Counted from the first letter of the stretch, positions 280 through 48,486 are shown. The stretch: 64,000 bases of DNA from an uncultured Bacilli bacterium (GCA_947623935.1 CANQIE010000001.1:4169-68168); one strand, 5' to 3'. The notes: generated by a model from the letters alone, not told the origin. Translations and numbers: made by a program.

Positions 280-1167
280 TTAGGCACCTCCAGAAACCTC
301 GTAAGCATCACTTGCTACAAAGAATGCAGAAGGATCAATCTGGAAAATACCTTCTTTTAATTTAAAATACTCACTAGTAGGAATAACACACATCAACACT
401 TTTTGTTTTTCTTTGGTGTATCCACCTCTTGCATCAAAGATCGTTACTCCATGATTTAGGTAAGTTAAAATATACTCTTTGATCTCTCTATCTTTTTCGG
501 TAATGATATAGAACGCTTTGGAACTTGAAATACCTAAAATAACTTTATCCGTTAAAATACTGATAATGTATAAAACAATAATACCATACATGAGTCTTGT
601 AACCCCAAAGAAGAAGACACTACTGAAAACGATTAAGCCATCGCTTAACAACATGGCATTACCTAAACTCATATGAGCATATTTAGAAACAATTTGGTTG
701 ATGATATCCGTTCCACCCGTCGTAAATCCGGCTTTAAATATAAGTCCTGCACCAAGTCCATAAAGAACTCCCCCAAAAAGGGCAAGAAGTAATACTTGAG
801 AAGTATCTACCGTAACATAGGTCCCAATCGTAGAAGTTAGTTGGATAGCAAGTGGAAAGAGTAAAGATCCTAAGATCGAGCCCTTGGTCTTTTCCAATCC
901 TAAGGTAAAGTAACTAACAACGAGTAAAATGATCGATCCTACTAAGATAAAGAGAGAAGGCTCAATATTCCATAAACCTTTAAAGATAATAGAAAGTCCA
1001 CTCAAACCTCCAAAAACAATGTTGTTCGGAAGTAAAAACAAGTTAAAGGCAATGGAAGCAAGGAAAATACCAACAACTAATTCAATATAACGACGAATTA
1101 TTTTCGTATGATTGACTTTCTTTATAATCTCATCGGTCTTAGGTCTCCTTCTTTCAAATAATTTCAT
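280..1167 (-). CDS. YitT-family integral membrane protein (DUF161 with C-terminal DUF2179-like domain)
   Basis: 295-aa ORF, multiple TM helices, GGTDIINQ and C-terminal YxxTxxxRExKEYIxxxxxG.TIFxxxGGY pattern typical of YitT family; start overlaps prfB stop (ATGA). Confidence 0.65.
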   Translation of the reverse strand: MKLFERRRPKTDEIIKKVNHTKIIRRYIELVVGIFLASIAFNLFLLPNNIVFGGLSGLSIIFKGLWNIEPSLFILVGSIILLVVSYFTLGLEKTKGSILGSLLFPLAIQLTSTIGTYVTVDTSQVLLLALFGGVLYGLGAGLIFKAGFTTGGTDIINQIVSKYAHMSLGNAMLLSDGLIVFSSVFFFGVTRLMYGIIVLYIISILTDKVILGISSSKAFYIITEKDREIKEYILTYLNHGVTIFDARGGYTKEKQKVLMCVIPTSEYFKLKEGIFQIDPSAFFVASDAYEVSGGA

Positions 1168-2262
1168 ACATTTACCTCCTTCAAATAACTTTCTATAAAT
1201 AAATCAAGATCTCCATCTAGGACTTTGGAAACATTACTGGTCTCGACTTTCGTTCTAGCATCTTTTACAAGAGAATAAGGATGAAGTACATAACTACGGA
1301 TCTGAGAACCAAAGTTGATAGAGGCTACCTCACCTTTTAATTCTTTCTTTTCTTGTTGCTGTTTTTCGAGTTCTAAAAGTTTAAGTTTTCCCTTTAAAAT
1401 GGCAAGGGCTCTTTCTCTATTCTGTAATTGACTTCGCTCATTTTGACAGGTAACGACAATTTTAGTCGGAAGATGGGTAATACGTACTGCTGAATCGGTC
1501 GTGTTGACGTGCTGTCCTCCGGCTCCCCCAGAACGATAAACATCGATCTTTAAATCTTTAGGATCAATCTCAATATCGATACTGTTATCAATTTCAGGGG
1601 TTACTTCAATGGAAGCAAAAGAAGTATGTCGTTTGTTATTGGCATCGAAAGGGGATAGTCGAACCAAACGATGAACTCCTCGTTCACATTTTAAATAACC
1701 ATAGGCATAACTTCCTTTGATTAAAAGAGAGGCCGATTTAATACCCACTTCTTCGCCTTCTTGATAGTCTAATACCTCAATCTTGTATCCTTTCTTCTCT
1801 GCATATCTGGTGTACATCCTATAAAGCATCATCGCCCAATCACAGGCTTCGGTTCCTCCCGCTCCTGAATGCACTTCTAAAATACAATTATTTTGGTCAT
1901 ACGGACCACTTAATAAAAGAAATAGTGATAACTCTTCAACTTTTTGCTCTAGAGATGGAAGTTCTCCCTCCAATGAAGAAAGAACCTCACTATCCTCTTC
2001 TTCCATTAAATTAAAGAGTTCTAAATTATCATTGATTTCCTTTTCTAATTTCGTTATTTTTTCCGTAATATTTCTTAAATTAGATAACTTGTCGATAATT
2101 TCTTTGGCTTCTTCTTGATGATCCCAAAAAGAAGGATCATTCATCTTTTTTTCTAATACTTTTTCTTCTTCTAATTTGGAATCGATGTCAAAGTGACCTC
2201 CATAAATCACTAATTTCTTCTTCTAATTTTTCGAGTTGTCTTTTTATTTCATTTTTATCCAT
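1164..2262 (-). CDS. prfB: peptide chain release factor 2, expressed via programmed +1 ribosomal frameshift
   Basis: SPF tripeptide motif (LSPFDANNKRHTS) and GGQ motif (GGQHVNTTDSA); upstream frame encodes MDKNEIKRQLEKLEEEISDLWRSL ending at in-frame TGA within CTT TGA C, +1 frame continues DIDSKLEEE... Confidence 0.9.
2187..2204 (-). promoter_or_regulatory. prfB autoregulatory +1 frameshift site: internal Shine-Dalgarno GGAGG, 3-nt spacer, slippery CTT TGA C
   Basis: minus-strand sequence TATGGAGGTCACTTTGAC read directly; canonical RF2 recoding signal. Confidence 0.85.
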
Positions 2263-2360
2263 CTTTCTATCACTTTCCTTTATTTATACTAATTTTATTA
2301 TATCATAGCCCCATCGAAAACCACAAATAACTTCGAAGAAAAAAGAGAAATCTCTTTCTC

Positions 2361-3656
2361 TTATGCTTCTTTAGGTTCTCTATAAGTTTGTTTTATATTG
2401 TATTTAACATCTGGTAAAGCGGCTACATCTTCAATCGTTTTAACATTGTATCCCCTACTCTGTAATAGAGCAATAAGTTCTTCTTCAGATAAGTATTCTT
2501 CACTTAAACGATCCCATTCAATTTCACCATTAAGATTAGTAAGCGGAACAATTTCTACTTTTATACGTGTTTCAATCTCTCTTGTTCCATCTTTAAATGG
2601 TTTAGTGTCTGGAACTACACGAGTGTATTCACTCCAAGCACTCCAAACCTCACTATCATCAATACGTTTGGCATTAGGAGACGGTTTGGATGGAAGAAGA
2701 TCACTTCGCTCCATTTTCTCAACGCGATAATATTTGCTGGCATACGTCTTGGTTTCTTCATCGCGTTTAGCTCCTTGTACTGGTGCTGTTAAATAATAGG
2801 TGATTTCTTCATCACGATTGGTAGTTCCTGATGGATAATAATACTTAGGTCCATCGTCGTTTTGAATATACCATTTGTAAGCAAAATTTTGGGATACTTC
2901 TTTAAAGGTATAAAGTTCACTTGGACTTTCTTTGTAGTATTCGGTTACTAATTCACTATTGGATTTATCTTGTGGATAATAGAAACGAACATCTCCCTGA
3001 TAAGCCCAATTCTTATCGCGATAACGATAATAAGTGGTCTGTTTTACAATTTTATAATTAGTATAAGGTACTTCATCTAACCACATGGTTTCTTTTTCAC
3101 CCACAGTGGTCTTGTCGGTATTAAGTTTTTCAGCTTGATAAGAGAAATTTACTTTAGCATTCATTTTGTCTAAAATGTCTTTTTCATCCACCAAAGGTTT
3201 TTCTTCTCCATAAGCTACCGTTGAAGTATTGTTTTCACATTGCATGCTTACTTCAAAGTGATAATTTCCACTTTCAAGTTTACATACTTTAACCATACTG
3301 ACATCTTTGTCACATTTTTTATAGTAGTTAATATCGGATATTAATTTTTGTTCTTGAATGGTCTGTAAAGCTACCGTTGCACAACTACCATTGGATGATG
3401 GTAACTTGGTGGGATCAAATTCGAAATAAGTTTTGGCACTCGCTAAAAAATAATCTTGAGCAAGGGTTGAACCTGGTTGTTCAAAAGGATCAATTTTACT
3501 TACCTCATAGGCATGCATCCCAAAAACAGCAATCAAAATAACAGCAATAACAGAAATGATAACAAGTGCTAAACGGTAACGTTTAATGGTCTTTTTACTA
3601 GAATATTGATTCGGATTTTCATAATCGGTAATATTTTTATATTCGTTATTATCCAT
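2361..3656 (-). CDS. hypothetical protein with single N-terminal TM anchor and large Tyr/Trp-rich extracytoplasmic domain
   Basis: 431-aa ORF; hydrophobic segment LALVIISVIAVILIAVFGM near N-terminus; no recognisable catalytic motif. Confidence 0.5.
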   Translation of the reverse strand: MDNNEYKNITDYENPNQYSSKKTIKRYRLALVIISVIAVILIAVFGMHAYEVSKIDPFEQPGSTLAQDYFLASAKTYFEFDPTKLPSSNGSCATVALQTIQEQKLISDINYYKKCDKDVSMVKVCKLESGNYHFEVSMQCENNTSTVAYGEEKPLVDEKDILDKMNAKVNFSYQAEKLNTDKTTVGEKETMWLDEVPYTNYKIVKQTTYYRYRDKNWAYQGDVRFYYPQDKSNSELVTEYYKESPSELYTFKEVSQNFAYKWYIQNDDGPKYYYPSGTTNRDEEITYYLTAPVQGAKRDEETKTYASKYYRVEKMERSDLLPSKPSPNAKRIDDSEVWSAWSEYTRVVPDTKPFKDGTREIETRIKVEIVPLTNLNGEIEWDRLSEEYLSEEELIALLQSRGYNVKTIEDVAALPDVKYNIKQTYREPKEA

Positions 3657-3812
3657 ACATTCCTCCTACTTTCCTACTCTAACTATATCATGCCAAAAGC
3701 CGTTATTTCAAGCAAAAGAAAAAGAAAATCGCTTATTTACGTCGATTCATTTTTTAAATAAGAACTTTTTGATTTCAAATCTTAAAAATATTTAAGAAAG
3801 ATTATAATTATT

Positions 3813-4409
3813 TTACCAACCACTTTTTATAAATATTTTATTCTCGAAATCACATCGTCTTTCTTTTTTACTATCAACAACAAAATAAGAATCCATGATA
3901 CGAGGAATAATTTTACAAGTAATTCCCTCTATTTTCATTTCATAAGAAGGAACTTTATCACATCTTAAAACAAAGTCATCTAATACATTGTAAAAAGAAG
4001 TCCCTTCTTTAAACTTTAAAAGAATAGGCTTATACGAAGGATTAGTTGAATCTAAAAAATAAGGATTCCCTTGATGAAAGAACAGTATAACATAAGTACA
4101 TTTTTCAAAAATTTCATCAAAGGAAATGAATCCAAAGTCTATAAGTACATTCCCATTGCTATCATACGTATTATCGCTTATTACATTGCGGACAACATTT
4201 CTTTTTTCTTTTTCTTGAAACCAATTTTTTAATCCATCAAGAATAGCACCAGGATCATAATACTCCTTTTCGATTCCAACTTCAAAAGGTATTAAGTATT
4301 CTAATAAAGAATCTATTGGAACCACAAATTTTGAAGAAGGCGCAATCGACTGCATGCTCTTAGGTTTCAAATAGGATCGTAATTGGTCGATTCCGTTAAT
4401 GCTTTCCAT
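3813..4409 (-). CDS. hypothetical protein
   Basis: 198-aa ORF 14 nt downstream of 4424..4816, likely co-transcribed; no recognisable motif. Confidence 0.4.
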   Translation of the reverse strand: MESINGIDQLRSYLKPKSMQSIAPSSKFVVPIDSLLEYLIPFEVGIEKEYYDPGAILDGLKNWFQEKEKRNVVRNVISDNTYDSNGNVLIDFGFISFDEIFEKCTYVILFFHQGNPYFLDSTNPSYKPILLKFKEGTSFYNVLDDFVLRCDKVPSYEMKIEGITCKIIPRIMDSYFVVDSKKERRCDFENKIFIKSGW

Positions 4410-4423
4410 ATATAAAACTCTTT

Positions 4424-4816
4424 CTAAAATTTCTTTTGTAATACTTTATCAATAAGTACAATATCTTTCTGGTCTTTTTCTCTATTTAAATATTGTTTTA
4501 GTTTTTTTACATCTTCTAATTTCTGAACTGGAATGCCTTCAATTAAATCAAAAGAAGGAGAATATAAATTGCAACCAAAATTAATAGTATTATCGATATA
4601 ATATAAACAATTGCCATCAGGAAGAACCCGCTCTAAAGTACAAGAATAATGCGTAAGTAAATACCTAAAATAAGATTTAGTAACTGAAATATCAACATCT
4701 CTTGTCTTCTCCTTAATCCCTAAAAGAACGAGTACTGCTCCCGAAATCACTAAATATTCATTTGGGTCAAAGGCATACTGACGTAAAATAGTTAAAATTT
4801 GATTTCGATCAAACAT
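4424..4816 (-). CDS. hypothetical small protein; possible minimal nucleotidyltransferase (Pol-beta-like) fold
   Basis: 130 aa; SGAVLVLLGIKEKTRDVDISV resembles hG[GS]-x9-13-DhDh of minimal NTases; weak, unverified. Confidence 0.35.
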   Translation of the reverse strand: MFDRNQILTILRQYAFDPNEYLVISGAVLVLLGIKEKTRDVDISVTKSYFRYLLTHYSCTLERVLPDGNCLYYIDNTINFGCNLYSPSFDLIEGIPVQKLEDVKKLKQYLNREKDQKDIVLIDKVLQKKF

Positions 4817-4921
4817 TTTATTCCTTCTTTCTCTAGTTATGTCTTTCTATAATACGCTTTTAAGTTAAATTAAGCAAGAAACAAAAAGATTTTAAACAAA
4901 AGTTAAGGTCTTTGAAAAATG

Positions 4922-5224
4922 CTATTGTTGATTTATTTTTTTACTAAGAATAGGTCCTAAAGAAGAAGTAGTTTTACTTTCCATTTTTTGATTTTGTAAT
5001 AAAGTAAACATCATTTTGGTAAGTCCCGTACTCTGATTCACTAAGACTTGTATTTCTTCTATACTCATCTTATCTAAAAGATCACTTTCCCCTGCTTTAT
5101 CTAATATCTCTCTTAAAGTTAAATGACTATCCCCAAATGCTCCATTATGATAACGATTCATAATACTATAATACTTTTCCAAATTTTCACTTAATTCCTT
5201 TTGTTCATGATTTTCTAATTTCAT
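4922..5224 (-). CDS. hypothetical protein
   Basis: 100-aa ORF with AT-rich SD-like upstream region; no motif recognised. Confidence 0.35.
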   Translation of the reverse strand: MKLENHEQKELSENLEKYYSIMNRYHNGAFGDSHLTLREILDKAGESDLLDKMSIEEIQVLVNQSTGLTKMMFTLLQNQKMESKTTSSLGPILSKKINQQ

Positions 5225-5242
5225 ATTTTTATATTTCCTTCC

Positions 5243-5905
5243 TTATTTTTTTATTAAAATTTTGTCTCTTTGAGATTGATAATCATCTTCACTAACCAAG
5301 TGATATTTTAAGCAATCTTCTAAAGAAGCCAATTCTTTTCTCTTGGCTGTTTCTACTTCATTTCTCCAAAAACGTTCTTCTTCTAACATCGCTTTTATAG
5401 CCTCATCTTGTCCTTTTTCGATACACAAATCAAAAAACTTGTATCTCGTATTATAATATCGATCTTGGAAATCATTAATAAATCTTTTTCCTCTTACAAC
5501 TCTGTTTTCTTGTTCAAAAGTAGGTTGTTCACTCAAAGGAATAGTTATTCTTCTTGTTGCATCTTCTAAGTCCATATAAACCGAAACCATACGTTCCTTA
5601 TCTTCATCATAATATGAACTTCCAAATATTTCTTCATATCTTTGAACAGATAAATCTATAGCCCAAAACCAGATATGATTCGTTTGTTCTAGAGCACCAC
5701 TTCCAAACTTTTTAATCAGTTTAGAAATAACATCTTTATAACAATTATCCACACCAATATAAGATCTCTGTAACTCTAATAAGTACTTATAACGTTTTAC
5801 AACGGGATGTTCTTCCAATTCTTTAATCTCTTCAAAATCACTTTGTATAAGTCTTTTTTCCTCGGTATATTCTTTTCTTATTTGTTCTAATTCTTCTTTA
5901 GTCAT
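5243..5905 (-). CDS. hypothetical charged, likely helical cytoplasmic protein
   Basis: 220-aa ORF rich in E/K/R/Y; no motif recognised. Confidence 0.4.
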   Translation of the reverse strand: MTKEELEQIRKEYTEEKRLIQSDFEEIKELEEHPVVKRYKYLLELQRSYIGVDNCYKDVISKLIKKFGSGALEQTNHIWFWAIDLSVQRYEEIFGSSYYDEDKERMVSVYMDLEDATRRITIPLSEQPTFEQENRVVRGKRFINDFQDRYYNTRYKFFDLCIEKGQDEAIKAMLEEERFWRNEVETAKRKELASLEDCLKYHLVSEDDYQSQRDKILIKK

Positions 5906-5963
5906 AATCCAAAACCTCCTATTTTCCCCTCTTATTTATAATAACTCAAAAATGAAATAATTT

Positions 5964-7013
5964 CTATTTTTTATATTTATTAAGGAACTCATAAATATAT
6001 TTATAATATTCTTCTTTATGCATGGTATATGTTTCTATAATTTTATTTGCTGTCTCATAAGCTTTTGTATAATCTTCCTTAGTAATAAGTCCTCTTTCAT
6101 AGACTTCTTTTAATTCATCCTCATCCATTAAGCTAGGCCCATATCCATTTGGAATACAAACATCTAATTTCATATCCACAAAATAAGGATTTTCTGAATC
6201 ACTAAAATCGTTGATCTTTGTTATATCAAAGTAACTTTCAATCAATCGGTTTTGATCATCAAACATAACCGTTAACCACCAATTTTGATTCTTTGGTGCA
6301 AATATTAATTGTTTAAAATGATTATCAACGATCTTAACTTTTCCAATAGGAGAATCGACTACTAAAGGAGAAGATACCTCTATAATATTTAAATAACATA
6401 CTTTACCTTCAAAGAATTTATTCTTTATACTTTCAACTTTGGTTCCTTTTTTTAGAATTCTTTTCCAAGTATCTCTTTTTAAATCTTTAAAGCCAAACTT
6501 AATAGGATTATTAAATCTGATTCTAGTTAGATATTGGCTATCCGTTTCTCCAACGATAAAAGCCCCACAGTTAAGTTGAACTTTTAAAGATGCTGGATTA
6601 TCCTTATTAAAAGATAAATAAATTTCATCTTCGGATATAAGTTCTTTACACTTATCAATAGCAAGTTCTAATCCCTTTGTTGCATATCCCTTTCCTCTCA
6701 TAGAAGGTAAAATGCCATACCCAATATGTCCGGGTCCTTTTTTTAAATAATCATTCAAAAAATGTCTTATTTTAAAAAGGCCTACAATTTTATTATCATT
6801 CCATAAAAAGAAATAAGTATCGGGAACATATCCCTCTTCCAACTCTAATCCTTCCGAATTTTTTAATAATTTAGGAATAACTTTTTCTTTTAGTTCTTCC
6901 ATAGTAACATCATGATATTTGTTTTCAAAACCATTTTCATTAAAAGGAATGGCTCTAAAAGCCTTATACTCTTCCTCAATGTCATCATAATTTATTTTCT
7001 TTAGATAAAGCAT
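5964..7013 (-). CDS. GNAT-family N-acetyltransferase fused to a C-terminal DUF402-like domain
   Basis: N-terminal half has GNAT motif A (GILPSMRGKGYATKGLELAI); C-terminal part YFDITKINDF...YFVDMKLDVCIPNGYGPSLMDEDELKEVYERGLITKEDY resembles DUF402/FomD-like domains. Confidence 0.55.
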   Translation of the reverse strand: MLYLKKINYDDIEEEYKAFRAIPFNENGFENKYHDVTMEELKEKVIPKLLKNSEGLELEEGYVPDTYFFLWNDNKIVGLFKIRHFLNDYLKKGPGHIGYGILPSMRGKGYATKGLELAIDKCKELISEDEIYLSFNKDNPASLKVQLNCGAFIVGETDSQYLTRIRFNNPIKFGFKDLKRDTWKRILKKGTKVESIKNKFFEGKVCYLNIIEVSSPLVVDSPIGKVKIVDNHFKQLIFAPKNQNWWLTVMFDDQNRLIESYFDITKINDFSDSENPYFVDMKLDVCIPNGYGPSLMDEDELKEVYERGLITKEDYTKAYETANKIIETYTMHKEEYYKYIYEFLNKYKK

Positions 7014-7037
7014 GTAATCAACTCCATTATTTAATCT

Positions 7038-7355
7038 TTATTTAGCAAGTTCTTCATCCATCCAATTTAGATAATCTTTATGAATACTTGTAATATCATA
7101 CACAGCAAATTCAAAACATTCATAACTATGTATAGACTTAATTACTTCATAAATTTTTTCTTGATATTCTTTTTTAGTCGTCATTTGAAGTAAATACTCC
7201 TTTGATACTTCTCTTTGTTGATGATAATTCCAACTACTTTCACTTTCGATCACATGACAACTGGTCACGATCTTCATATCTAATAATTTTTTAACAATGG
7301 CATCAATTTCATCTATATTGTTACTGGCCGTTTCAATCATACAATATTGAGTCAT
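7038..7355 (-). CDS. cutA: CutA-like divalent-cation tolerance protein
   Basis: 105 aa; pattern IVTSCHVI....W......E.LL..T......I.EV.KSIHSYECFEF.V.DI...KDYLNWMDEE matches CutA1 family (HPYEVPE, YL.W motifs). Confidence 0.5.
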   Translation of the reverse strand: MTQYCMIETASNNIDEIDAIVKKLLDMKIVTSCHVIESESSWNYHQQREVSKEYLLQMTTKKEYQEKIYEVIKSIHSYECFEFAVYDITSIHKDYLNWMDEELAK

Positions 7356-7412
7356 AATAATCTCACCTATAAAAATTATACTATAATATCAAAAAGATAA
7401 AAATAATAGAGG

Positions 7413-7850
7413 TTATATTTCAAGTTCCATAACTACATGAACAATTCCTTCTTCTAAGAAATCATTAGAAACCGCTTTAAATCCAAATTTTCCATAAAAA
7501 CCTACAGCATGTTTTTGAGCGTCCATACATATTTTTTTGCAATTCATTTTTTCTTTAATTGATTGCAAACTTTGTTCCATCAATTCTTTACCTACACCTT
7601 TTCCATGTTTTAGAGTTAAAACTCTACCAATTTTAACAATGTCTTTATGGACATCTTGATAAAATGCTCTAAGATAGGCTATGACCTTATTATCTTTCAT
7701 AAAAAAGCAATGTAAACTGTTATAATCAATATCATCTATATCTTGATAATGAATATTTTGTTCCATAACAAAAATTTCTGATCTTGCTTTTAATATTTCA
7801 TATATTTCTGTAGTGGATAATTCATTAAATTTTTTAGATATTAAATTCAT
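7413..7850 (-). CDS. GNAT-family acetyltransferase, ElaA-like
   Basis: 145 aa; ELSTTEIYEILKARSEIFVMEQNIHYQDIDDIDYNSLH and IGRVLTLKHGKGVGKELM match ElaA/GNAT motifs. Confidence 0.7.
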   Translation of the reverse strand: MNLISKKFNELSTTEIYEILKARSEIFVMEQNIHYQDIDDIDYNSLHCFFMKDNKVIAYLRAFYQDVHKDIVKIGRVLTLKHGKGVGKELMEQSLQSIKEKMNCKKICMDAQKHAVGFYGKFGFKAVSNDFLEEGIVHVVMELEI

Positions 7851-7909
7851 CTATTTTCTCCTTACCAATTACCATTTATTTCACTTGGGATTATAAAAAT
7901 AATATTAAT

Positions 7910-8416
7910 TTAAGATAATATAAAGGCGATCGTATTGCAAACAACAGCAATAAAGAACAATGTGCCAGTTAATAAATCTGTTTTATCTTTTCTTACTTTA
8001 TAACGACTCAAAAAAGTAACGCAGTTATAAGCACATAGCAAACTAACTAAAGAGGAAGAAGAAATGTTTTTACAAGTTGAAATAATTACTAAGATAATAA
8101 AGAATAAAGCCATACCTATAATTCCATATTTCATAGATTTTAAATTTACTAATTCTGTTAATTTGATGACATTTTCTTCACACTTTTTTTCCACATTCTT
8201 TTTTTCTATCGTTTCCCCAGCAAGTATATCATTTACGCTCACTTCTAATATTTCGCTAAGTGGTTTAAGTAGAGACATATCCATTAAACATAATCCTCTT
8301 TCCCACTTACTTACAGCGTTTTTAGTAATACCTAGTTTTTCTGCTAGTTCTTCTTGTGTCAATTCTTTTGCTTTTCTTTGTTTAGCAATAAATTTGCCAA
8401 TTTTTTCTTGATTCAT
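7910..8416 (-). CDS. XRE-family helix-turn-helix transcriptional regulator with C-terminal membrane segments
   Basis: N-terminus AKQRKAKELTQEELAEKLGITKNAVSKWERG is a canonical HTH_3; C-terminal half has two hydrophobic helices. Confidence 0.75.
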   Translation of the reverse strand: MNQEKIGKFIAKQRKAKELTQEELAEKLGITKNAVSKWERGLCLMDMSLLKPLSEILEVSVNDILAGETIEKKNVEKKCEENVIKLTELVNLKSMKYGIIGMALFFIILVIISTCKNISSSSLVSLLCAYNCVTFLSRYKVRKDKTDLLTGTLFFIAVVCNTIAFILS

Positions 8417-8494
8417 ATTTTTCTCCTTTCAAGAAGAACGGTAACATTTAAACATTATTTTTTAAACATACCAAGAGTTTACTTCCCAAAATGA

Positions 8495-9485
8495 CTATTT
8501 GTTTTCTATTTGTTTTGTTTCATTTAATAATCTATCAAAATCAGATACATAGTTTCTATCTTGTATAACTTTATATTTTTCATATTCAATTTCTGCTTTT
8601 TCTACTGCTTGTTTATGAGAAACTGTTCCTTTTCCTTCTAAGACATCATAATGAAAAGCTTTTATTGCGTTTTCAACTTCTTTTTTCCAATCATCCATAT
8701 ACATTGCAATATTTCTTTCAGCATTATTTTCAGCTATATCTAAAAATACATTTACTAAATTGTTTAAATTTTTAATTTCTTTTTCATCTAAATAATTTTT
8801 GGCAATAGTAATATCTGATTTTAATATCTTCCCATCAGGTGATTTATCCCAATTGGTAAGGCCTATATTTTCTTTTGCAGAATCAACTCTATTATAAACT
8901 ATTTCCGCAGCAGTCTGTCCAGTTATAGCGTAATGAAATTTATTTTGAATCGTTTTATAAAATTCCATTGCTATTTCACTACTTTTATCATAATCTATTG
9001 AACATTCTTTCACTTGTACGAATTAATTTAATTCTTTCAAGTAATCTTTGAAAATATTCTTGATCTTTTTTATTGGCTTTCATGAATCTTTCGTCATTTA
9101 AAGCAAACCCCTGAACCATATAATCCTTAATGATTTTATTTGCCCAAGTTCTAAATTTAATTGCTTTTTTAGAATTAACTCTAAATCCTATGGAAATAAT
9201 CATATCAAGATTATAATACGGATAAACTCTTTTAACTTTACGAGTCCCTTCATTTTGAACTTGTGCAATTTTTGCACAAGTTGAATTTTCATTTAATTCT
9301 TCCTCTTTATAAATATTATTAATATGTCTAACAATACCACTTCTATCAATGTCAAATAAAGCTGCTAAAGCCTCCGTATTTAACCAAACATCTTCATTTT
9401 GAAGTAATACTTCTACTTTAGTATTTCCTTCCTCATCATTATAAAATAAAATGTTTTTTTCATTTCCAATTAATTTATCTTTCAC
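8495..9485 (-). pseudogene. RhuM-family virulence-associated protein gene split by a frameshift into two overlapping ORFs (8988..9485 N-terminal, 8495..9013 C-terminal)
   Basis: N-part ...LNTEALAALFDIDRSGIVRHINNIYKEEELNENSTC...YNLDMIISIGFRVNSKKAIKFRTWANKI and C-part HYAITGQTAAEIVYNRVDSAKENIGLTNW...YEKYKVIQDRNYVSDFDRL together match a single RhuM protein; reading frames change near 9000-9013. Confidence 0.6.
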
Positions 9486-9826
9486 AATTACACCCTCTCT
9501 AAAATTTAAAAAATCATACTCAAATATTATGATTAAATATTTCTCTTATGCATTCGCAAATGATAAGCTTGACAAACTTTCATACTATCATCCCCTAATA
9601 TCAACATATCATACATACGTTTGCTAGTCAACTTATTTTTAATAAAATTTTTATCTTATAGAAATATGCTATAATTTTCCTATTATAAAATAAAAACCAG
9701 CGCGAATGCTGATTTTACAATGTTATCATTGGAATTTCATTGATCCTACAGGGTTTTTAGCATTTTTGGAAACAAATTGAATTTTTTGTGTACATTCTGA
9801 GTACATTTTTATAGTCTTAGAGGTTC

Positions 9827-10426
9827 TTATGTTTTATTATCTCTTGTTTTTTTAATATAATTATATATATCAGTCCAATTATCAAATATTGGTATTTTAT
9901 CTGCGAAAAAATTATTTGTATTTAAACAAACTGCTTTTATGCCATATCTTTTAACATCTAAACAATTATTTATATTATCATCTATAAACAAATCCACTTT
10001 TTCTTCTTTACAAATTTTACCTTTATTTCTAGCTTTTACTATTAATTTATCATAATATATATTATTCTTTTTTAACCATTCTTCACTTTGTTTATACGGA
10101 TCATCGTGGAACTCTAAATCTCTAGCTGTAATTATGTAAATTTCATATCCATCTAAATGAAGTTTATTAACAAATTCCAAAACACCTTCTCTTGGAATAG
10201 CATTGTTAGTAATATTTTCTTGGATATTTTTTAAAAAATATTTAAGTTCTTCATATGTAAAGCCAAATGCTTTTTGATATATATTTCCATCATTCTTTTT
10301 ATCTATTAATTCTAAATTTTTCAAATTGATGTTCTTATTTAGGCTAGTTGCATATATGTAAGCAGCATTATTTAATTCTTTTTGAATATCAGTAAGAGTA
10401 TTATCGATATCTATGCCAATTCTCAT
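9827..10426 (-). CDS. HAD-superfamily hydrolase (nucleotidase-like)
   Basis: start chosen at MRIGIDIDNTL (HAD motif I DxDxT) preceded by AGGAGGAG SD; LFIDDN-type motif later; ORF-track start at 10495 is probably too far upstream. Confidence 0.55.
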   Translation of the reverse strand: MRIGIDIDNTLTDIQKELNNAAYIYATSLNKNINLKNLELIDKKNDGNIYQKAFGFTYEELKYFLKNIQENITNNAIPREGVLEFVNKLHLDGYEIYIITARDLEFHDDPYKQSEEWLKKNNIYYDKLIVKARNKGKICKEEKVDLFIDDNINNCLDVKRYGIKAVCLNTNNFFADKIPIFDNWTDIYNYIKKTRDNKT

Positions 10427-10558
10427 TAATAGTCTCCTCCTATTTACAAAAAATGTTCCCATTGAAAATTCCTTTGTTTTATTTGGATTTTTCAAATTTT
10501 TGGGAACATTTCTATTATAGATTATTACAAAACCTTCACGTATTTATTTATAATTATT

Positions 10559-11170
10559 TTATTTTGTATCAATACTTTTCATCGTATAAGTATTATAACC
10601 TTCATATTGATAACTAGCATCAATACCTTTCATATAAACTTCTCTATCGCCTATTTTATCAGTCAACGCTTTTTCAATCAATAATTTTATTTCTGTATCT
10701 TTAATAGGGCTTCTTTCCATTGCTAACAAATATTCTTCTTTTGAAACTTTGGACCAATCAACTACTTTGTTTAATTCTTTCTTTAAAATCAAATCTAACC
10801 ATATTCTGGTACTTCTTCCATTTCCTTCACGAAAAGGATGAGCAATGTTCATTTCTATGTATTTTTTTATAATGTCTTCAAAAGTATTTTGAGGCATTTT
10901 ATCTATTTTCAATAATATGTCTTCTAAATACATAGCAGAGGCGAATCTAAAATTTCCTTTAGCTAAGTTTTCGCCTCTTACTTTACCGGCAAATTCATAA
11001 ATATCCTCGAATAAATATTTATGAATTTGAGATAAACCATTAAAAGTTCCAACTTCAAATTCGTTAATTTTATTACTGTCAAATAATTCTAAAGCTTTAA
11101 TTTTGGTAATTCTTTCTTCTTCTTTAGATAGCTCTATTTCATTGGTAATACCTAGTTTATTCTGTAGCAT
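10559..11170 (-). CDS. fic: Fic-family protein (AMPylation/adenylyltransferase-type Fido domain)
   Basis: canonical Fic motif [12 protein letters not shown] in a 203-aa protein. Confidence 0.8.
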
Positions 11171-11175
11171 TAGAC

Positions 11176-13674
11176 CTATCTCCCATGACAGTTTTTATAC
11201 TTCTTACCTGAGCCACAAGGACAAGGATCATTTCTTCCAACTTTCTTAACACGTTTAGGAGTAGCCTTTTTGTCACTTTTATCTTCGTTCGTAAGTTTTT
11301 CCTTAACTACTTCTTTACGTTCGATATTCTGTCTTACTTCAGCACGTACTAAGAAAGTAGTAATATCTTTATCAATTCTTTGTTGCATTTGATCAAAGAG
11401 TTCAAATCCTTCCATCGTATAAGCACGCAATGGATCATCCTGTCCATAACCACGAAGTCCAATACCTTCTCTTAAATGAGAAAGCGTATTGATATGCTCC
11501 ATCCAATGGTTATCGATAATGTTAAGTGAAATCGCTTTTTCGAATTCATCTCTTAACTCTTCTGGAAGTTCTTTTAATTTAGCTTCGTACTCTTCTACTA
11601 CTTTCGTATATAAGTACTCAATCATTTCATCTTCTGGTTTATTATCGATTTCTTCTTTATCAATATCTTTCTTTAATAAGTTTTCATTGACATACTCACA
11701 AATTTCTTTAACATCATCATTCGTTAAGCGACCTTCTGGATAAACATGAGACTTAACTAAATCAGTAATATGGTTATGGAAAGAATCTAAAACCGTTGAA
11801 TGAATCGATTCACTATCTAGAATTTCATTTCTTCTTCCATACATGATTTCTCTTTGTTGATTCATAACATCATCGTATTGGAGTAATTGTTTACGAATAT
11901 CGAAGTTATTTCCTTCAACTCTTTGTTGCGCAGAAGAAATGGCTTTAGTGAACGTCTTACTTTGAATAGGCTGATCCCCAAATCCAAATGATTGCATCAT
12001 GGCTTTAATTCGATCCGATCCGAACCGTACCATTAAGTCATCTTCCATAGAGATATAGAACTGAGTAAATCCAGGATCTCCTTGACGACCAGAACGACCA
12101 CGTAACTGGTTGTCGATACGACGAGATTCATGACGCTCTGTACCTATAACACAAAGTCCACCTAATGCTCTAATCTCATCAGATAATTTGATATCGGTTC
12201 CACGACCAGCCATGTTAGTGGCAATCGTTACTGATTTATTCATACCGATTTTTTCGATGATTTCTGCTTCTCTTGCATGGTTCTTTGCATTTAACACTTC
12301 ATGTGGAATATGTTTTTGTTTTAATAAACTACTGATTAACTCACTCGTTTCAATGGCAATAGTACCTACTAAAACGGGTTGACCATTTTTATAACGCCGT
12401 TCAATTTCATTGATAATGGCTTTATATTTGGCTTGTTTCGTAGCATACACTAAATCCGGTGCATCTTCACGAATAACAGGCATGTTGGTAGGAATTTGAA
12501 TAACGTACATATTGTAAATGTTACGGAACTCTTCTTCTTCGGTCTTAGCAGTTCCCGTCATTCCAGCTAATTTCTTATACATACGGAATAAGTTCTGGAA
12601 CGTAATCGTAGCAAGCGTCTTCGTCTCTTGATTGATGGTAACGCCTTCTTTAGCTTCTAGTGCTTGATGAAGTCCATCACTAAAAGCACGCCCTGGCATC
12701 AAACGACCCGTAAATTGGTCAACGATTACAATCTTATCTTCTTGAACAACATAATCCACATCTCTTCTCATCGAGAAGTTGGCACGAAGGGCTTGGTTGA
12801 TATAGTGCACTAAAGAAGAAGCTTTTAAATCGTATAAGTTATCAATCTTAAAATGTTTCTCCGCTTTTGACACACCTTCATCAGTAAGCGATACACTTTT
12901 GGTTTTTTCATCGTAAATAAAGTCTGCTTCTTTCTTTAAAGTTTTAGCAAAGCGATCAGCATCAATATAGAGATTGGCACTTTGCATTTGTCCACCCGAA
13001 ATAATCAACGGTGTTCTTGCTTCATCGATTAAAACCGAATCGACCTCATCAACAATTGCAAAATTCAAAGGACGTTGAACACGATCTTCCTTACGAACAA
13101 CCATGTTATCACGCAAGTAGTCAAATCCAACTTCGTTATTGGTCGTATATAAAATATCTTTAGCATATTCAGCTTGTTTTTCACTAGGAGTTAAATCTCT
13201 TCTATTAACACCAACGGTCAAACCTAAGAATTGGTGAATGACACCCATCCAGTTGGCATCACGGTCAGCAAGGTATTCGTTAACGGTAATAACATGCACG
13301 CCTTGTCCTGTTAAAGCATTTAAGTAAGCAGGCATAACACTGGTTAACGTTTTTCCTTCACCAGTTTTCATTTCGGCAATATTACCGTAGTGAATAGCAA
13401 TTGCTCCTAATAACTGTACATAGAAAGGTTTTTGTCCTAATACACGAAAACTTGCTTCACGTACAACAGCATACGCTTCGACTAACAAATCATCAAGCGT
13501 CTCTCCATTTTCTAAACGTTTCTTAAATTCATCGGTCTTTGCTTTTAGTGCATCATCTGATAATTTTTGCATTTCTTCATCTAAATCATCGATTTTATGT
13601 GCCAAATCATTAAACCTTTTTAATTCTTTATACTCATGATCAAATAACTTCTTTAATAAACTCATGTTTATCAC
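11176..13674 (-). CDS. secA: preprotein translocase ATPase SecA
   Basis: 832 aa with DEAD-like motor motifs and C-terminal zinc finger [14 protein letters not shown]. Confidence 0.95.
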
Positions 13675-23604: not shown

Positions 23605-25170
23605 TTAGGAGTTTACACCTGTGTGCGACAAGAAAACATTAATTTCTTCCATTTTCTTGTTTTTATCAAGACGCATAAAGATAGGTTTTGCCTCTTGGAC
23701 TTCATAGGCATTATCTTCTTTATACGTTAAAGTATCATCCGTAGTTCCTAATTGACTTAAGATTTCTTTACTGGTATCCGGTAAGAAGGCTTCTAGTAAA
23801 TTAGCACATACACGAATAGATTCTAATAAATTGTATAATACCGTTGATAGAAGGGCTTGCTTACTTTCATCTTTGGCAAGAGCCCAAGGAGTAGTATCAT
23901 CAATATATTTATTACTGTTACGTAATTGGTTCATAATTTCTTCAAGAGCATTTCCAACTTCTAATTTATTCATCTTTTTATCCACTAAAGTTGGTAGATT
24001 CTTGATATGATCAATAAAGCTTTCATCAAATTCGGTTGTTTGACTCGTACGACTTACTTTTCCATCAAAATATTTATGAGCCATTGAAATCGTTCTATTG
24101 ACCAAATTTCCTAAAACATTCGCAAGATCGCTATTGTAACGTTCAATGATTAAATCATAAGTTATATTTCCATCGTTGGCAAAAGGCATCTCATGTAAAA
24201 CATAATAACGAATAGCATCGACTCCAAATAAATGCACTAAATCGTCGGCATACATAACGTTACCTTTACTTTTACTCATTTTATCGTCTTGAAAAAGCAT
24301 CCATGGATGACCAAAGACTTGTTTTGGTAAAGGTTCACCTAGCGCCATTAAAATAATAGGCCAATAAATAGTATGAAATCGAATAATATCTTTACCAATT
24401 AAGTGTAAATCGCAAGGCCACCACTTGTTGTACTCTGAACTACTACCATCGACATCGTAACCAATGTTCGTAATATAATTGGTTAGTGCATCAATCCAAA
24501 CATAGACTACATGTTTTGGATCAAAATCTACTGGAATTCCCCAAGAGAAACTAGAACGCGAAACACATAAATCTTGTAGACCTGGTTTGATAAAATTATT
24601 AATCATTTCATTCTTTCTAGATTCAGGTTGAATAAACTCTGGATGAGATTCAATGTAATCAATTAATTGATCTTGGTATTTTGATAATTTAAAGAAATAC
24701 GCTTCTTCTTCCGCTTTATGAACTTCTCTTCCACAATCGGGACATTTGCCATCCACTAATTGACTCTCCGTAAAGAAAGATTCGCAAGGAGTACAGTATA
24801 ATCCTTTATAAGTTCCTTTATAGATATCCCCTTGTTCATAAAGTTTTTTAAAGATTTTTTGTACTTTTTTAACATGTTCTGGATCGGTAGTTCTTACAAA
24901 ACGATCATAGCTTGTGTTCATAATATCCCAAATCGCTTTAATTTCACCTGCTACTTCGTCGACATAAGCTTGAGGAGTAATACCTTTTTCTTTAGCTTTT
25001 AACTCAATTTTCTCCCCATGTTCATCGGTTCCCGTTTGAAAATAAACTTCGTATCCTTTTTTTCTTTTGTACCTAGCAATGGCATCTGCTAAAACAATCT
25101 CATAGGTATTTCCAATATGTGGTTTCGATGAAGTATATGCAATTGCCGTACTAATGTAAAATTTTTCCAT
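23605..25170 (-). CDS. metG: methionyl-tRNA synthetase (short form without C-terminal tRNA-binding domain)
   Basis: HIGH-type (SKPHIGN) and KMSKS (KMSKSKGN) motifs, zinc knuckle CTPCE...CPDCG. Confidence 0.95.
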   Translation of the reverse strand: MEKFYISTAIAYTSSKPHIGNTYEIVLADAIARYKRKKGYEVYFQTGTDEHGEKIELKAKEKGITPQAYVDEVAGEIKAIWDIMNTSYDRFVRTTDPEHVKKVQKIFKKLYEQGDIYKGTYKGLYCTPCESFFTESQLVDGKCPDCGREVHKAEEEAYFFKLSKYQDQLIDYIESHPEFIQPESRKNEMINNFIKPGLQDLCVSRSSFSWGIPVDFDPKHVVYVWIDALTNYITNIGYDVDGSSSEYNKWWPCDLHLIGKDIIRFHTIYWPIILMALGEPLPKQVFGHPWMLFQDDKMSKSKGNVMYADDLVHLFGVDAIRYYVLHEMPFANDGNITYDLIIERYNSDLANVLGNLVNRTISMAHKYFDGKVSRTSQTTEFDESFIDHIKNLPTLVDKKMNKLEVGNALEEIMNQLRNSNKYIDDTTPWALAKDESKQALLSTVLYNLLESIRVCANLLEAFLPDTSKEILSQLGTTDDTLTYKEDNAYEVQEAKPIFMRLDKNKKMEEINVFLSHTGVNS

Positions 25171-25184
25171 TTCTTTTTCCTCCT

Positions 25185-25435
25185 AAAAAAAGATGACTTA
25201 TTATGTTAAGGACGGATCTTTTCCGCGGTACCACCTTAATTTATAATAAATCATCTTATTATACACTTTCTAAAGTTAACGCCTATCTTACGTTTTCGCC
25301 TACCTATCGACGAAAAAGTTCCGAAGCCATATCCATTTGAGTCATCTTTCCTTGCTTTCACCTAACCAAGGTCTCTTTTTTAAAGAATCAATCAAAGGAC
25401 TCTTCATCAAAACTTTTGAATATGGCTAGATTATA
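25185..25435 (-). promoter_or_regulatory. T-box riboswitch leader upstream of metG
   Basis: minus strand contains T-box sequence AATTAAGGTGGTACCGCGG (plus 25223..25240); terminator halves AAGATGATTTATTAT / ATAATAAGTCATCTT flank it, followed by U-run and metG RBS; ATG-containing candidate specifier region GAAAGATGACTC further 5'. Confidence 0.65.
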
Positions 25436-38264: not shown

Positions 38265-38282
38265 AAATTATCACCTCAAAAT

Positions 38283-38366
38283 AAAAGATGCACATGAGAT
38301 TAAACTATTAAAGCTGCTATCTTCCGATCCTGACTTGGTTCTAGTCATCTCATTGCATCGTTATTA
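38283..38366 (-). ncRNA. ffs: small SRP RNA (4.5S/scr), domain IV
   Basis: minus strand GATGCAATGAGAT...GTCAGGATCGGAAGATAGCAGC...ATCTCATGTGCATC: closing helix plus conserved GUCAGG-NNN-GGAA-NNN-AGCAGC with GGAA tetraloop; U-run follows. Confidence 0.6.
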
Positions 38367-38404
38367 TTGTAATCTATTTTTATTTTTTTTGCAACTATAT
38401 ATTA

Positions 38405-46092: not shown

Positions 46093-46231
46093 ATTATTTT
46101 CCTTCTTTCTTATATTTTTTTATTATTTTTAAAGTGGAAACTGTTCATAACTTCATTTTCACTTTATTTTACTATTCTTTCTTCTTTATTTTCTTGTGGA
46201 AAAAAGCGTTTATAATTTTTATTTATCCCCT
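46093..46231. promoter_or_regulatory. dnaA-dnaN intergenic oriC half (AT-rich region with DnaA boxes, likely DUE side)
   Basis: TGTGGAAAA (46194..46202) and weaker boxes in a >80% AT spacer. Confidence 0.5.
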
Positions 46232-47599
46232 TCACTTAATATCTTTCATTAATTTTTCAATGGTTCCTGCCAATTCTTTATTTGTTTTCATTTCTCGTTC
46301 GATTTTTTCACAGGAGTGCATAACGGTAGAATGATCTTTTCCACCAAACTCCATTCCTATTTTAGGAAAAGATTCATTAGTGAGTTTTCTACACAGGTAC
46401 ATGGCAACTTGTCTTGGAAAAGCAAGATTTGCACTTCGCTTCTTACTTTTCATATCTTCACTTGATATTTGATAAAATTCTGCTACTCGCTTTTGAATTT
46501 TTTGAATATCGTTTTTCTCAGTTACTCCCTTGTTGATAAAATCTTTTAAGGCTTCTATTGCTAAATCTAAGTTGATTTCTTGTCCACCCATGATGGTGGA
46601 ATATGCAAGTAGCCTATTGACTGATCCTTCGAGCTGTCTAACATCATTTCCCATATTAGAGGCAATATATTCAATGACATCTTCGGGAATTTCTCGTTCA
46701 ATGGCTCCTCCTAAAATCTTCTTTTTTAGAATGGATACGCGTAAATCGAAGTCTGGTGGAAAAATGTCTACTGTTAATCCCCAACAGAACCTTGTTCGTA
46801 ACCTGTCCTCTAAGACTTTTAAATCATCTGGTGATCGGTCTGAGGAAATAATAATTTGTTTATTATCACTATATAAAGTATTAAAGGTATGGAAAAATTC
46901 TTGTTGAGTTTTAGTAGCTCCTCCTAAAAACTGAATGTCATCGATGATTAGTACATCTACATTTCGATATTTATTTTTAAAATATTCTATATAATTAAAG
47001 TTATTACCGTTATCATCTTTGGTATTGATGCCCAAGAAATCTTCTATAAATTGTTCACTAGTAACATATAACACCCGTCGATTAGAATTTTGTACGATGA
47101 AGTTACCAATCGCATGCATCAAATGGGTTTTTCCTAATCCACTATTACCATATATAAATAAAGGGTTATACATTTTTCCAGGATTCTCTGCTACGGATAA
47201 AGCCGCGGCATGAGCAAATTTATTACTGTTTCCAACAACAAAGTTTTCAAAAGTATAATTTGGATTTAAATTTGATTGCACATTATTATTGGAAGGAATA
47301 ATAACTTCTTTCTCTTCTTCTTTCCGTCGTTCAATTTCTTTTTTCTCATCAATCTCTTCTTGTAGTAAAAATTCTATTTCAAAATTAGATCCTGCTAAAT
47401 TATTAAAAGTTTGAATAATTAAATCTTTATAATTATCTTCTAAATGTCTTTTGTGTATTTCCATCGGAACTATAATTGTCGCTTTTCCATTCTCTAATGC
47501 GTAAAGATGCGTATCTTGAAACCAAGTTTCGTAAGATAAGGAGGTAATTTCTTTTTTTATTTCTTCTAAGAAATTATCCCATAAGATGGTAACATTCAT
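46232..47599 (-). CDS. dnaA: chromosomal replication initiator DnaA
   Basis: AAA+ Walker A GNSGLGKTHL, DnaA signature, C-terminal HTH DNA-binding domain; start at MNVTILW. Confidence 0.95.
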   Translation of the reverse strand: MNVTILWDNFLEEIKKEITSLSYETWFQDTHLYALENGKATIIVPMEIHKRHLEDNYKDLIIQTFNNLAGSNFEIEFLLQEEIDEKKEIERRKEEEKEVIIPSNNNVQSNLNPNYTFENFVVGNSNKFAHAAALSVAENPGKMYNPLFIYGNSGLGKTHLMHAIGNFIVQNSNRRVLYVTSEQFIEDFLGINTKDDNGNNFNYIEYFKNKYRNVDVLIIDDIQFLGGATKTQQEFFHTFNTLYSDNKQIIISSDRSPDDLKVLEDRLRTRFCWGLTVDIFPPDFDLRVSILKKKILGGAIEREIPEDVIEYIASNMGNDVRQLEGSVNRLLAYSTIMGGQEINLDLAIEALKDFINKGVTEKNDIQKIQKRVAEFYQISSEDMKSKKRSANLAFPRQVAMYLCRKLTNESFPKIGMEFGGKDHSTVMHSCEKIEREMKTNKELAGTIEKLMKDIK

Positions 47600-47608
47600 A
47601 AATATCAC

Positions 47609-47932
47609 ATCCTTATCAGCGTATTGTTTAAAAGTAAATTCATTGTTTTTTATTGTAACTGAAATTGTGGAAAAAGAAAAGAAAAAAAATTAAAAAATTG
47701 AAATTCACAGGTTATTCACCTGTTTTGCACAAAGTTATCCACTAATCTTATCCTTATTATATAAGGAAATGGTTGATTTTTCCACAAAATATGTAAATTT
47801 TATAATCAACAAGGTGCATTTTGTTTTCCACAAAGCTGTGCAAAATGTGGAAAAAATAAAAATCTAAAAAGCGGTTGACAAATTTCCTTTTTTCCTATTA
47901 TAATAATGGAGACTTTATGTTTGGAGGTGGAA
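47609..47932. promoter_or_regulatory. oriC DnaA-box cluster upstream of dnaA
   Basis: at least six 8/9 or 9/9 matches to TTATCCACA in both orientations (47666, 47735, 47778, 47824, 47846 etc.) plus A-tracts. Confidence 0.8.
47875..47904 (+). promoter_or_regulatory. rpmH promoter TTGACA-N18-TATAAT
   Basis: perfect -35 and -10 hexamers read directly, about 30 nt upstream of rpmH ATG. Confidence 0.5.
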
Positions 47933-47935
47933 ATG

Positions 47936-48058
47936 ATGAAAAGAACGTATCAACCAAATAATCGTAAAAAAGCAAAAAAACATGGTTTCTTTGCAAGAGT
48001 AAAAACAAATGTACTTAAGAAACGTAGAGCGAAAGGACGTAAGCAATTAGCAAAATAA
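47936..48058 (+). CDS. rpmH: 50S ribosomal protein L34
   Basis: [40 protein letters not shown]; GGAGGTGG SD. Confidence 0.9.
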
Positions 48059-48060
48059 TA

Positions 48061-48085
48061 CCACTGAGACTTTCAGTGGTTTTTT
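48061..48085 (+). terminator. rho-independent terminator/attenuator after rpmH
   Basis: CCACTGAGACTTTCAGTGG hairpin followed by TTTTTT. Confidence 0.6.
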
Positions 48086-48135
48086 CCTATTATAAATAGT
48101 CTTGGATCAAAAATAAAAATAAAGGGAGTGATCCA

Positions 48136-48486
48136 GTGAAAAAAGTAAATATAGTAAAAGAAAATATTCTTTTTAATGATATTATAAACACAGGTAAATG
48201 TGTGAAAGATAAAAATCTAGTCATCTATTATAATATAAATAAGGAAAAGAGATATCGCTTTGGTATTTCCATTGGAAAAAAGATTGGAAATGCGGTTACT
48301 AGGAATTATCAAAAGCGAAGAATAAGGAATATTGTGGATAATCATAAAAATCTCTATTCAAATGATTTAGATTATATTATAATAATAAGAAGAAATGTTT
48401 TAAATGAGGACTTCATACAATTAGATGAAAGCTTCGTTCAACTTATGAATAATATTAATAAGATGAGAGAAAGGAGCACCGAATGA
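48136..48486 (+). CDS. rnpA: RNase P protein component
   Basis: 116 aa basic protein, RNR-like motif region VTRNYQKRRIRN; GTG start. Confidence 0.85.
   Translation: MKKVNIVKENILFNDIINTGKCVKDKNLVIYYNINKEKRYRFGISIGKKIGNAVTRNYQKRRIRNIVDNHKNLYSNDLDYIIIIRRNVLNEDFIQLDESFVQLMNNINKMRERSTE

Follow-up and report, generated by a model that had tools for sequence, protein, structure and literature searches.

With the help of tyrosine recombinases, genomic islands and prophages integrate into, and regenerate, the 3' ends of conserved genes, classically of tRNA or transfer-messenger RNA (tmRNA) genes and in Firmicutes also of protein-coding genes such as fda, whose 3' end is used by ICESt1 and ICESt3. Defence and variable hotspots flanked by core genes have also been described in the pangenomes of Pseudomonas, Vibrio and E. 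coli. The locus analysed here lies in a 64,000-nucleotide (nt) stretch of DNA from an uncultured Bacilli bacterium (GCA_947623935.1 CANQIE010000001.1:4169-68168), referred to below as the window, in which the core genes secA (11176..13674, minus strand) and prfB (1164..2262, minus strand) are separated by 8,913 nt (2263..11175), hereafter the island. This interval is probably a decayed, immobile mosaic of acquired cargo at a lineage-wide integration hotspot at secA, rather than one functional system. Comparative sequence analysis points to the last ~45 nt of secA, encoding the C-terminal zinc finger, as an attachment core for the phages and small elements of the clade.

A genome scan with SecA collected 80 related loci, numbered with the prefix L, from uncultured gut Bacilli, "Tenericutes" and Erysipelotrichaceae metagenome-assembled genomes (MAGs), among them the named Ca. 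Faecenecus and Ca. Scybalousia. Their SecA proteins are 63–93% identical to that of the window. The hpf-secA arrangement is conserved across these relatives, while the DNA after secA is different in nearly every species: the 309 open reading frames (ORFs) found downstream of secA, including those of the window, form 236 clusters, of which 205 are singletons. The prfB gene follows downstream in only 10 of the 80 loci, at distances of 0.6, 1.6, 2.8, 3.8, 4.1, 5.1, 5.1, 6.3, 8.2 and 8.3 kb; in others, unrelated housekeeping genes come after a variable stretch. Contigs end within 1.5 kb after secA in 36 of the 80 loci, compared with 10 of the 80 before it (Fisher p = 8e-6), and such systematic breaks are expected of a strain-variable or repeated region. 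The original prediction, made from the window alone, had described an accessory island between two normally adjacent genes. The accessory nature of the interval is supported by the variation of its content, and the opposite finding, an invariant gene content of native composition across the lineage, was not obtained; the supposed adjacency is borne out by only part of these relatives.

The largest ORF cluster downstream of secA, with 23 members from 16 loci, consists of tyrosine integrases. The protein is intact, at 420–449 amino acids, in L054, L064, L018 and L021, comprises Arm-DNA-bind_4, SAM_3 and Phage_integrase domains, and in several loci its gene begins about 200 nt beyond the stop codon of secA. 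The spacer between secA and the integrase gene is structured: a short hairpin motif is accompanied by species-specific iterons and by a hairpin resembling a terminator. In eight aligned loci the 3' end of secA recurs 0.9–6.7 kb downstream; these displaced tails start at -43 to -46 from the stop codon in seven loci, the exception being L014 (-32). Counted with a degenerate 39-nt pattern for the C-terminal SecA codons, two to four tail copies on the same strand are present in 19 loci, with four in L043, and none appeared in shuffled sequence. In L034 the second tail is positioned 237 nt before prfB, thus bracketing the whole interval. Generic repeat searches in L054, L064 and L021 found no attachment (att) sites, and the core emerged only from tail-directed searches.

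The same tail occurs in viral DNA. Four viral contigs of the IMG/VR database, UViG_3300018475_001428, 7000000333_000034, 3300008077_000226 and 3300007793_000023 (L092–L095, respectively), encode integrases 49% identical to the L054 integrase, each with a secA tail at about 165–250 nt from the 3' end of the integrase gene. In L092, L093 and L095, the latter taken from a 41-kb contig, the tail is preceded by stop-ridden sequence that does not belong to secA, as an attP site would show. In L094 the tail is in frame with a genuine secA C terminus and represents an integrated junction. Taken together, the integrases, the displaced tails and the phage attP sites indicate site-specific integration into the 3' end of secA. 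For the acquisition mechanism, which had seemed unclear from the window, a route can thus be proposed at the level of the lineage. A full-text literature search returned no description of a secA-linked att site or hotspot, nor of the term "secA-prfB".

Some further features of the relatives accompany this site. The last residues of SecA vary between ...CCGK, ...CHGK and ...CHGR, and the genuine and displaced tails can differ within one locus (CCGK versus CHGK in L028), which fits tail replacement by incoming elements. In L054 (20350-20690) and L064 (10990-11215), a small excisionase-like helix-turn-helix (HTH) ORF (MNDRLIYTVKEVA...) precedes each second integrase gene, suggesting a different element type and tandem integration. 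About 30–120 nt after the secA stop codon, a conserved hairpin (AAAGGTGTGAACA...TGTTGACACCTTT, or AAAGGATGTC...GACATCTTT) is found in L014, L063, L072, L032, L027, L007, L044 and L053. It immediately precedes the ribosome-binding site of the gene for KilA-N or RhuM and might act as a terminator or in regulation.

In the window, ORF calling confirmed the predicted separation of secA and prfB by about 9 kb and 13 co-oriented ORFs. All of them are on the minus strand, and they correspond to 12 genes, the RhuM gene being split in two. The island has a GC content of 0.278, compared with 0.316 in the rest of the window, and its tetranucleotide distance is the highest among all 62 3-kb windows at 7001-11000 (2.74-2.86 versus a typical 1.2-2.0). 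The proposed composition check thus revealed a moderate deviation, greatest at the secA-proximal end, with the prfB-proximal third being near-native. The predicted absence of integrase, tRNA and flanking direct repeats was also confirmed: no tRNA is encoded in the whole 64-kb window, tblastn (E <= 10) found no integrase remnant in the island, and a repeat search gave no convincing flanking repeat. Only a single secA tail, at 11179, is present in the window, with no displaced copy, and the post-secA motif has no copy inside the island.

What the window does retain is a non-coding region of ~130 nt (9688..9838, minus strand), located between the stop codon of a HAD-family gene and the RhuM gene. 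It carries short iterons (AATGTAC..) and a hairpin (9716..9693) followed by a T-run, and it was the sole non-coding match of the island when all loci were searched by blastn. This relic is 74-79% identical to a ~170-nt region directly following the secA tail in L015; in L015 and L002, the tail and the relic-like region recur together further downstream. The relic hairpin (TCAGCATTCG[C/T]GCTGG) is also found about 45 nt upstream of an integrase start in L043. These similarities suggest that 9688..9838 is a remnant of the integrase-proximal arm of a secA-targeting element. The hairpin (-9.3 kcal/mol, z = -2.3) was detected by a terminator scan and is the only good terminator-like site after secA, which makes a secA-fic-HAD transcript likely; it probably now serves as the terminator of this transcript.

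The RhuM-family gene next to the relic (8495..9485, minus strand) is a pseudogene represented by two ORFs, 8988..9485 and 8495..9013, with Pfam Virulence_RhuM matches in both halves. The original prediction of a frameshifted RhuM was correct in that the gene is split, but the cause is a 35-nt deletion between AGAATGTT repeats and not a one-nucleotide frameshift, as revealed by alignment to the intact copies of L011 and L032. The nucleotide identity to these two copies is 84%, despite the corresponding SecA proteins being only 75% and 69% identical, and this difference indicates horizontal transfer. The RhuM gene comes right after the integrase gene in L011, L032 and L008, and the intact RhuM of relatives matches the PADLOC candidate family PDC-S05.

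The interval is not confined to one assembly. Seven contigs encode an identical copy of the island protein hyp220, in the same gene context in all. In the two of them compared at the DNA level, identity to the window is 100%, over 15.9 kb from secA to beyond prfB in L081 and over 7.7 kb from mid-island past prfB in L082. The sister lineage L083 (GCA_947630415.1) is collinear with the window at about 90% nucleotide identity, with both junctions collinear as well, and like the window it gave no integrase remnant in the tblastn search. It lacks the HAD gene, which would lie between fic and the relic, and also lacks hyp100, carries a LysR gene and a DUF2099 gene inserted after the relic, and contains a second, intact RhuM copy. 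Rather than a single inserted island, as first proposed, the interval thus appears as a mosaic common to the sister lineage, with insertions, deletions and uneven divergence.

The ratio of nonsynonymous to synonymous divergence (dN/dS) between the window and L083 is 0.03–0.39 in all eleven genes compared, indicating that the unannotated ORFs are real genes; individual values include 0.027 for surfY, 0.057 for fic, 0.13 for hyp220, 0.18 for the XRE gene and 0.25 for hyp198. Synonymous divergence (dS) itself varies strongly along the interval. It is high in prfB (0.76), surfY (0.66), yitT (0.62) and hyp198 (0.60), intermediate in the GNAT-DUF402 gene (0.46) and hyp220 (0.43), and low in the genes for CutA (0.29), Fic (0.25), the XRE regulator (0.18) and the small GNAT protein GNAT145 (0.17), as well as in hyp130 (0.05). 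Such unevenness suggests that patches were exchanged after the two lineages had split. The surfY gene, with its low dN/dS and a dS similar to those of prfB and yitT, behaves like a resident core gene.

The gene adjacent to secA (10559..11170, minus strand; Pfam Fic) starts 5 nt after the secA stop codon and encodes a predicted Fic AMP-transferase of class III, the EfFIC/NmFic type. The protein is about 70% identical over 197 aligned residues to EfFIC of Enterococcus faecalis (PDB 5NV5; E = 2.9e-88), also matches NmFic in a PDB sequence search, clears the cut-off of the NCBIfam NmFic equivalog NF046029 (301.6 versus 230 bits) and matches the PADLOC candidate PDC-S04 (1e-100). Residues 111-122 conform to the FIC motif HxFx(D/E)GNGRxxR, with H111, E115 and R122 conserved. 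EfFIC has been described as belonging to class III, its C-terminal helix carrying the autoinhibitory glutamate E190 (PMC6408439). In the window protein, the C-terminal inhibitory motif S186-YQY-E190-G aligns with SYYYEG (E190) of EfFIC. The closest DNA matches of fic, at about 71% nucleotide identity, come from 783 Enterococcus plasmids, where the gene is annotated as "protein adenylyltransferase Fic", which characterizes fic as a mobile gene. An identical-protein look-up for the window SecA and Fic returned no record.

The gene labels of the original prediction stand for Fic, RhuM, XRE, the two GNATs and CutA, all recognised by Pfam. The label is less secure for the HAD-superfamily phosphatase-like protein (9827..10495, minus strand), whose Pfam scores are weak and under the gathering thresholds; it carries a DIDNT motif I and matches PHROG 420 (5e-16) and PHROG 415, "polynucleotide kinase" (6e-11). 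Downstream of RhuM, and likewise on the minus strand, are the genes for an XRE-type HTH regulator with the membrane domain DUF6442 (7910..8416; Pfam HTH_3, 7e-12; DUF6442, 1e-12), GNAT145, a small ElaA-like acetyltransferase (7413..7850; Pfam Acetyltransf_10/1/7), and a CutA1-family protein (7038..7355; Pfam CutA1, 1.7e-15). The match of GNAT145 to NCBIfam PRK10314 (4e-26) is under the cut-off of that model. For the GNAT acetyltransferase fused to DUF402 (5964..7013, minus strand; Pfam), a homologue of 71% identity immediately follows secA in L077, a locus with a SecA identity of only 63%.

The five remaining ORFs, extending to prfB on the minus strand, have no Pfam family: hyp220 (5243..5905), hyp100 (4922..5224), hyp130 (4424..4816), hyp198 (3813..4409) and surfY (2361..3656). 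Searches of Pfam, NCBIfam, PHROGs and PADLOC gave nothing significant for hyp220, hyp198, hyp100 and surfY. The predicted helical orphan hyp220 is lineage-restricted and under purifying selection; among 5.8 billion proteins only two were found, i.e., one homologue, the L083 orthologue. For hyp198, another orphan and the fastest-evolving gene of the island (75% amino acid identity to its L083 orthologue), the same search returned the protein itself alone. AlphaFold2 models of these two were unusable, with a predicted local distance difference test score of 36 for hyp198 (single sequence) and 49 for hyp220 (two sequences), and viral contigs scanned with both proteins gave no match. The small hyp100 ORF has no significant family match. 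The hyp130 product resembles minimal nucleotidyltransferases of the DUF6036 type, with an invariant SG...DxD and a match to PHROG 12854 (3.5e-14); 10 of the 13 members of its family match PF19502. Homologues of hyp130 occur alone, without partner genes, in housekeeping operons of other gut Bacilli, and its family profile produced only chance matches (E about 0.1 or above) against PDB sequences. The surfY product, a Tyr-rich protein of 431 amino acids with an N-terminal membrane anchor, is a member of an uncharacterised family that forms about 91 sequence clusters at 50% identity, many of them of 450-680 amino acids; no family member was found near secA in the other loci.

PADLOC-DB v2 was searched at the level of hidden Markov model (HMM) matches and recognised no defence system in the window, only Fic as a single-gene candidate and a generic HTH. 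At the hotspot in relatives, PADLOC candidate families include RhuM, a 294-amino-acid KilA-N protein (PDC-S22), Fic, AriA-like ATPases, AbiLi, DrmD and a type I S subunit; GNATs, IS200 and IstB genes and ordinary genes are encoded there as well. The predicted resemblance to defence and stress islands therefore applies to the families, which recur beside secA in relatives and match PADLOC candidates, but no recognised system is present in the window. For the entire hotspot, some kinship with defence islands is plausible.

These data can be combined in the following scheme. Temperate phages and small integrase-bearing elements would recombine with the last ~45 nt of secA, each incoming element bringing a replacement tail and shifting the old tail, together with older cargo, towards prfB; successive insertions and deletions would then pile up genes between secA and prfB. 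Replacement and shifting of tails are evident from the sequences of relatives, and we infer the history of the window. There, an element of the int-RhuM type may once have abutted secA. Its integrase and the displaced tail would later have been deleted, leaving the arm relic at 9688..9838, and RhuM would have been inactivated afterwards. Fic, and in this species also the HAD gene, now lie between secA and the relic, where they are probably co-transcribed with secA up to the relic hairpin, and the remaining genes of the interval would be independent cargo held by purifying selection.

Several points weigh against this scheme. Neither the window nor its sister lineage contains an integrase remnant, and both have a single secA tail; the link between the island and the mechanism rests on the ~130-nt relic with its 74-79% identity and on the RhuM homology; the iterons of the relic could moreover be regulatory sites instead of integrase arm sites. 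The location of fic and the HAD gene between secA and the relic is not explained by one simple integration, and the prfB-proximal genes, hyp220 through surfY, have no tie to any mobile element. Many relatives have no prfB within 10 kb of secA, with housekeeping genes found there instead, and an ancestral secA-prfB adjacency in the clade would be deduced from few loci (L066 and L034). Finally, the dS values of short genes are noisy.

The same observations raise the question of whether the block is instead ancestral native chromosome composed of lineage-specific resident genes. Its backbone is shared with L083 and recurs in the same context in the seven contigs with identical hyp220, all genes are under purifying selection, surfY is core-like in dS and GC, and the window lacks integrase, tRNA and flanking repeat. 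Nevertheless, an ancestral origin is unlikely: beyond L083 the block is common to no other relative, the RhuM and GNAT-DUF402 genes are closer to copies of distant species than secA is, an element-arm relic lies inside the interval, the secA-proximal half is compositionally the most deviant part of the 64-kb window, and Fic belongs to a plasmid-borne enterococcal family. For the secA-proximal half this explanation is largely refuted. An artefact, in which the island would be an assembly or binning chimera of the MAG, might be suspected from the many related MAG contigs that break right after secA; it was rejected and can be practically discounted, given the independent contigs identical over 15.9 and 7.7 kb, the shared context of hyp220 and the sister genome collinear across both junctions.

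Two functional alternatives concern the cargo itself. According to one, the interval is an active defence or stress island, in which hyp220, hyp100, hyp130 and hyp198 (3813..5905) form a new anti-phage or stress module; the original prediction had suggested an uncharacterised module. The four genes are tightly packed and co-oriented, three of them have an L083 orthologue under purifying selection, two encode true orphans and one a nucleotidyltransferase-like protein, and PADLOC candidate families are over-represented at this hotspot in relatives. No sign of a module was found, however. The sister lineage lacks hyp100, hyp130 stands alone elsewhere, and for hyp220 and hyp198, having no homologues in other genomes, co-occurrence cannot be shown; PADLOC recognises no system in the window beyond the one-gene candidate Fic, and the RhuM gene is inactivated. 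A pairing of hyp130 with hyp198 as an MNT-HEPN system was considered and rejected, since hyp198 has no HEPN Rx4-6H motif and hyp130 homologues have no such partner. There is accordingly a slim chance of such a module, and the reading of the secA zinc-finger tail as an undescribed attachment site is more likely. According to the other alternative, Fic is the toxin of a class I FicT-like toxin-antitoxin pair whose antitoxin is missing or unrecognised; it draws on a weaker similarity to VbhT (NCBIfam, 5.8e-20; PDB 3ZC7, 3.7e-16). The original prediction had seen no obvious inhibitory-helix antitoxin for Fic, and the suggested check for an (S/T)xxxE(G/N) motif found one in the same polypeptide, the C-terminal SYQYEG aligned to the E190 motif of EfFIC. 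With inhibition encoded in Fic itself a separate antitoxin is not expected, and the secA stop codon 5 nt upstream leaves no space for a small antitoxin gene, which in class I pairs usually lies directly upstream. The retention of H111, E115 and R122 and the score above the NmFic equivalog cut-off point in the same direction. The class I FicT/FicA pair was therefore rejected as very improbable, and, judged by its motifs, Fic is a self-inhibited class III AMP-transferase and not an orphan toxin.

Several other features were noted in and around the interval. The prfB ORF was called at 1164..2210, while its true start is the ATG at 2262..2260, upstream of a canonical +1 frameshift site (CTT TGA C, 2193..2187) with GGAGG just before it; the gene has its own extended -10 box, TGATATAAT, at about 2306..2298. 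Two copies of a weak direct repeat of 21 nt, matching each other at 19 positions, are located at 2279-2299, just upstream of prfB, and at 10543-10563, overlapping the fic stop codon. They bracket the block from the HAD gene to surfY, both are kept in L083, and such a repeat is rare in random AT-rich samples of 100 nt from the window; it could be the trace of an older Fic-prfB junction, or chance. Elsewhere in the window, dnaA (46232..47608, minus strand), dnaN, recF, gyrB and gyrA lie on one side of the region at about 46200-48200 and opposite-strand genes begin at 48136, marking a probable replication origin. The coding strand switches there, and the secA hotspot is thus some 35 kb away. Upstream of a 521-amino-acid ORF (23605..25170) lies a T-box leader (118 bits; 25205-25419, minus strand), and a bacterial small signal recognition particle RNA (64 bits) is present at 38271-38369 (minus strand).

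For the window itself, the preferred reading of a decayed mosaic at the secA hotspot removes a puzzle: the interval would be a decayed remnant with a self-inhibited Fic and with no defence system recognisable by current models. What is modestly new is the secA zinc-finger tail as an integration target throughout an uncultured gut clade, the island itself being of an ordinary kind. Mobile elements of uncultured gut Bacilli are poorly known, and an attB site in the secA tail offers a way to locate their prophages and small elements, would explain the recurrent contig breaks after secA in MAGs and, through the corresponding attP, would allow phage contigs to be linked to hosts. If the secA tail is indeed the attachment site, the C-terminal zinc-finger codons of an essential gene would be repeatedly replaced by element-borne copies, such serial swapping being a side effect of integration.

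Among described systems, the window Fic resembles the class III proteins EfFIC and NmFic (PDB 2G03, 3S6A) in consisting of a single FIC domain of about 200 amino acids and shares with EfFIC His111, Glu115, Arg122 and the inhibitory Glu190; it differs in genomic position, its gene being on the chromosome 5 nt beyond the secA stop codon and probably sharing a transcript with secA. The RhuM family (Pfam PF13310; PDC-S05) is represented in L011, L032 and L008 by genes directly following the integrase in small elements, and RhuM-like genes also occur in streptococcal satellite prophages ("Javan" records), which are Streptococcus satellite phages of about 10 kb, whereas the window copy is a pseudogene. 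With the hotspots of Pseudomonas, Vibrio and E. coli the locus shares a fixed pair of core genes around highly variable cargo, including candidate defence genes; it differs in that the window cargo has no recognised system and that here an explicit att site accounts for the hotspot. A further parallel is provided by islands and prophages integrating at 3' ends of genes. Like these, the elements of the relatives encode integrases with arm-binding domains and bring a copy of the target 3' end, so that the gene stays intact, while displaced 3' ends mark old junctions and tandem accretion is followed by decay. The copy in the window differs in lacking integrase and att repeats, both probably lost, and the elements of the clade differ in their target, the last ~45 nt of secA with its zinc-finger codons.

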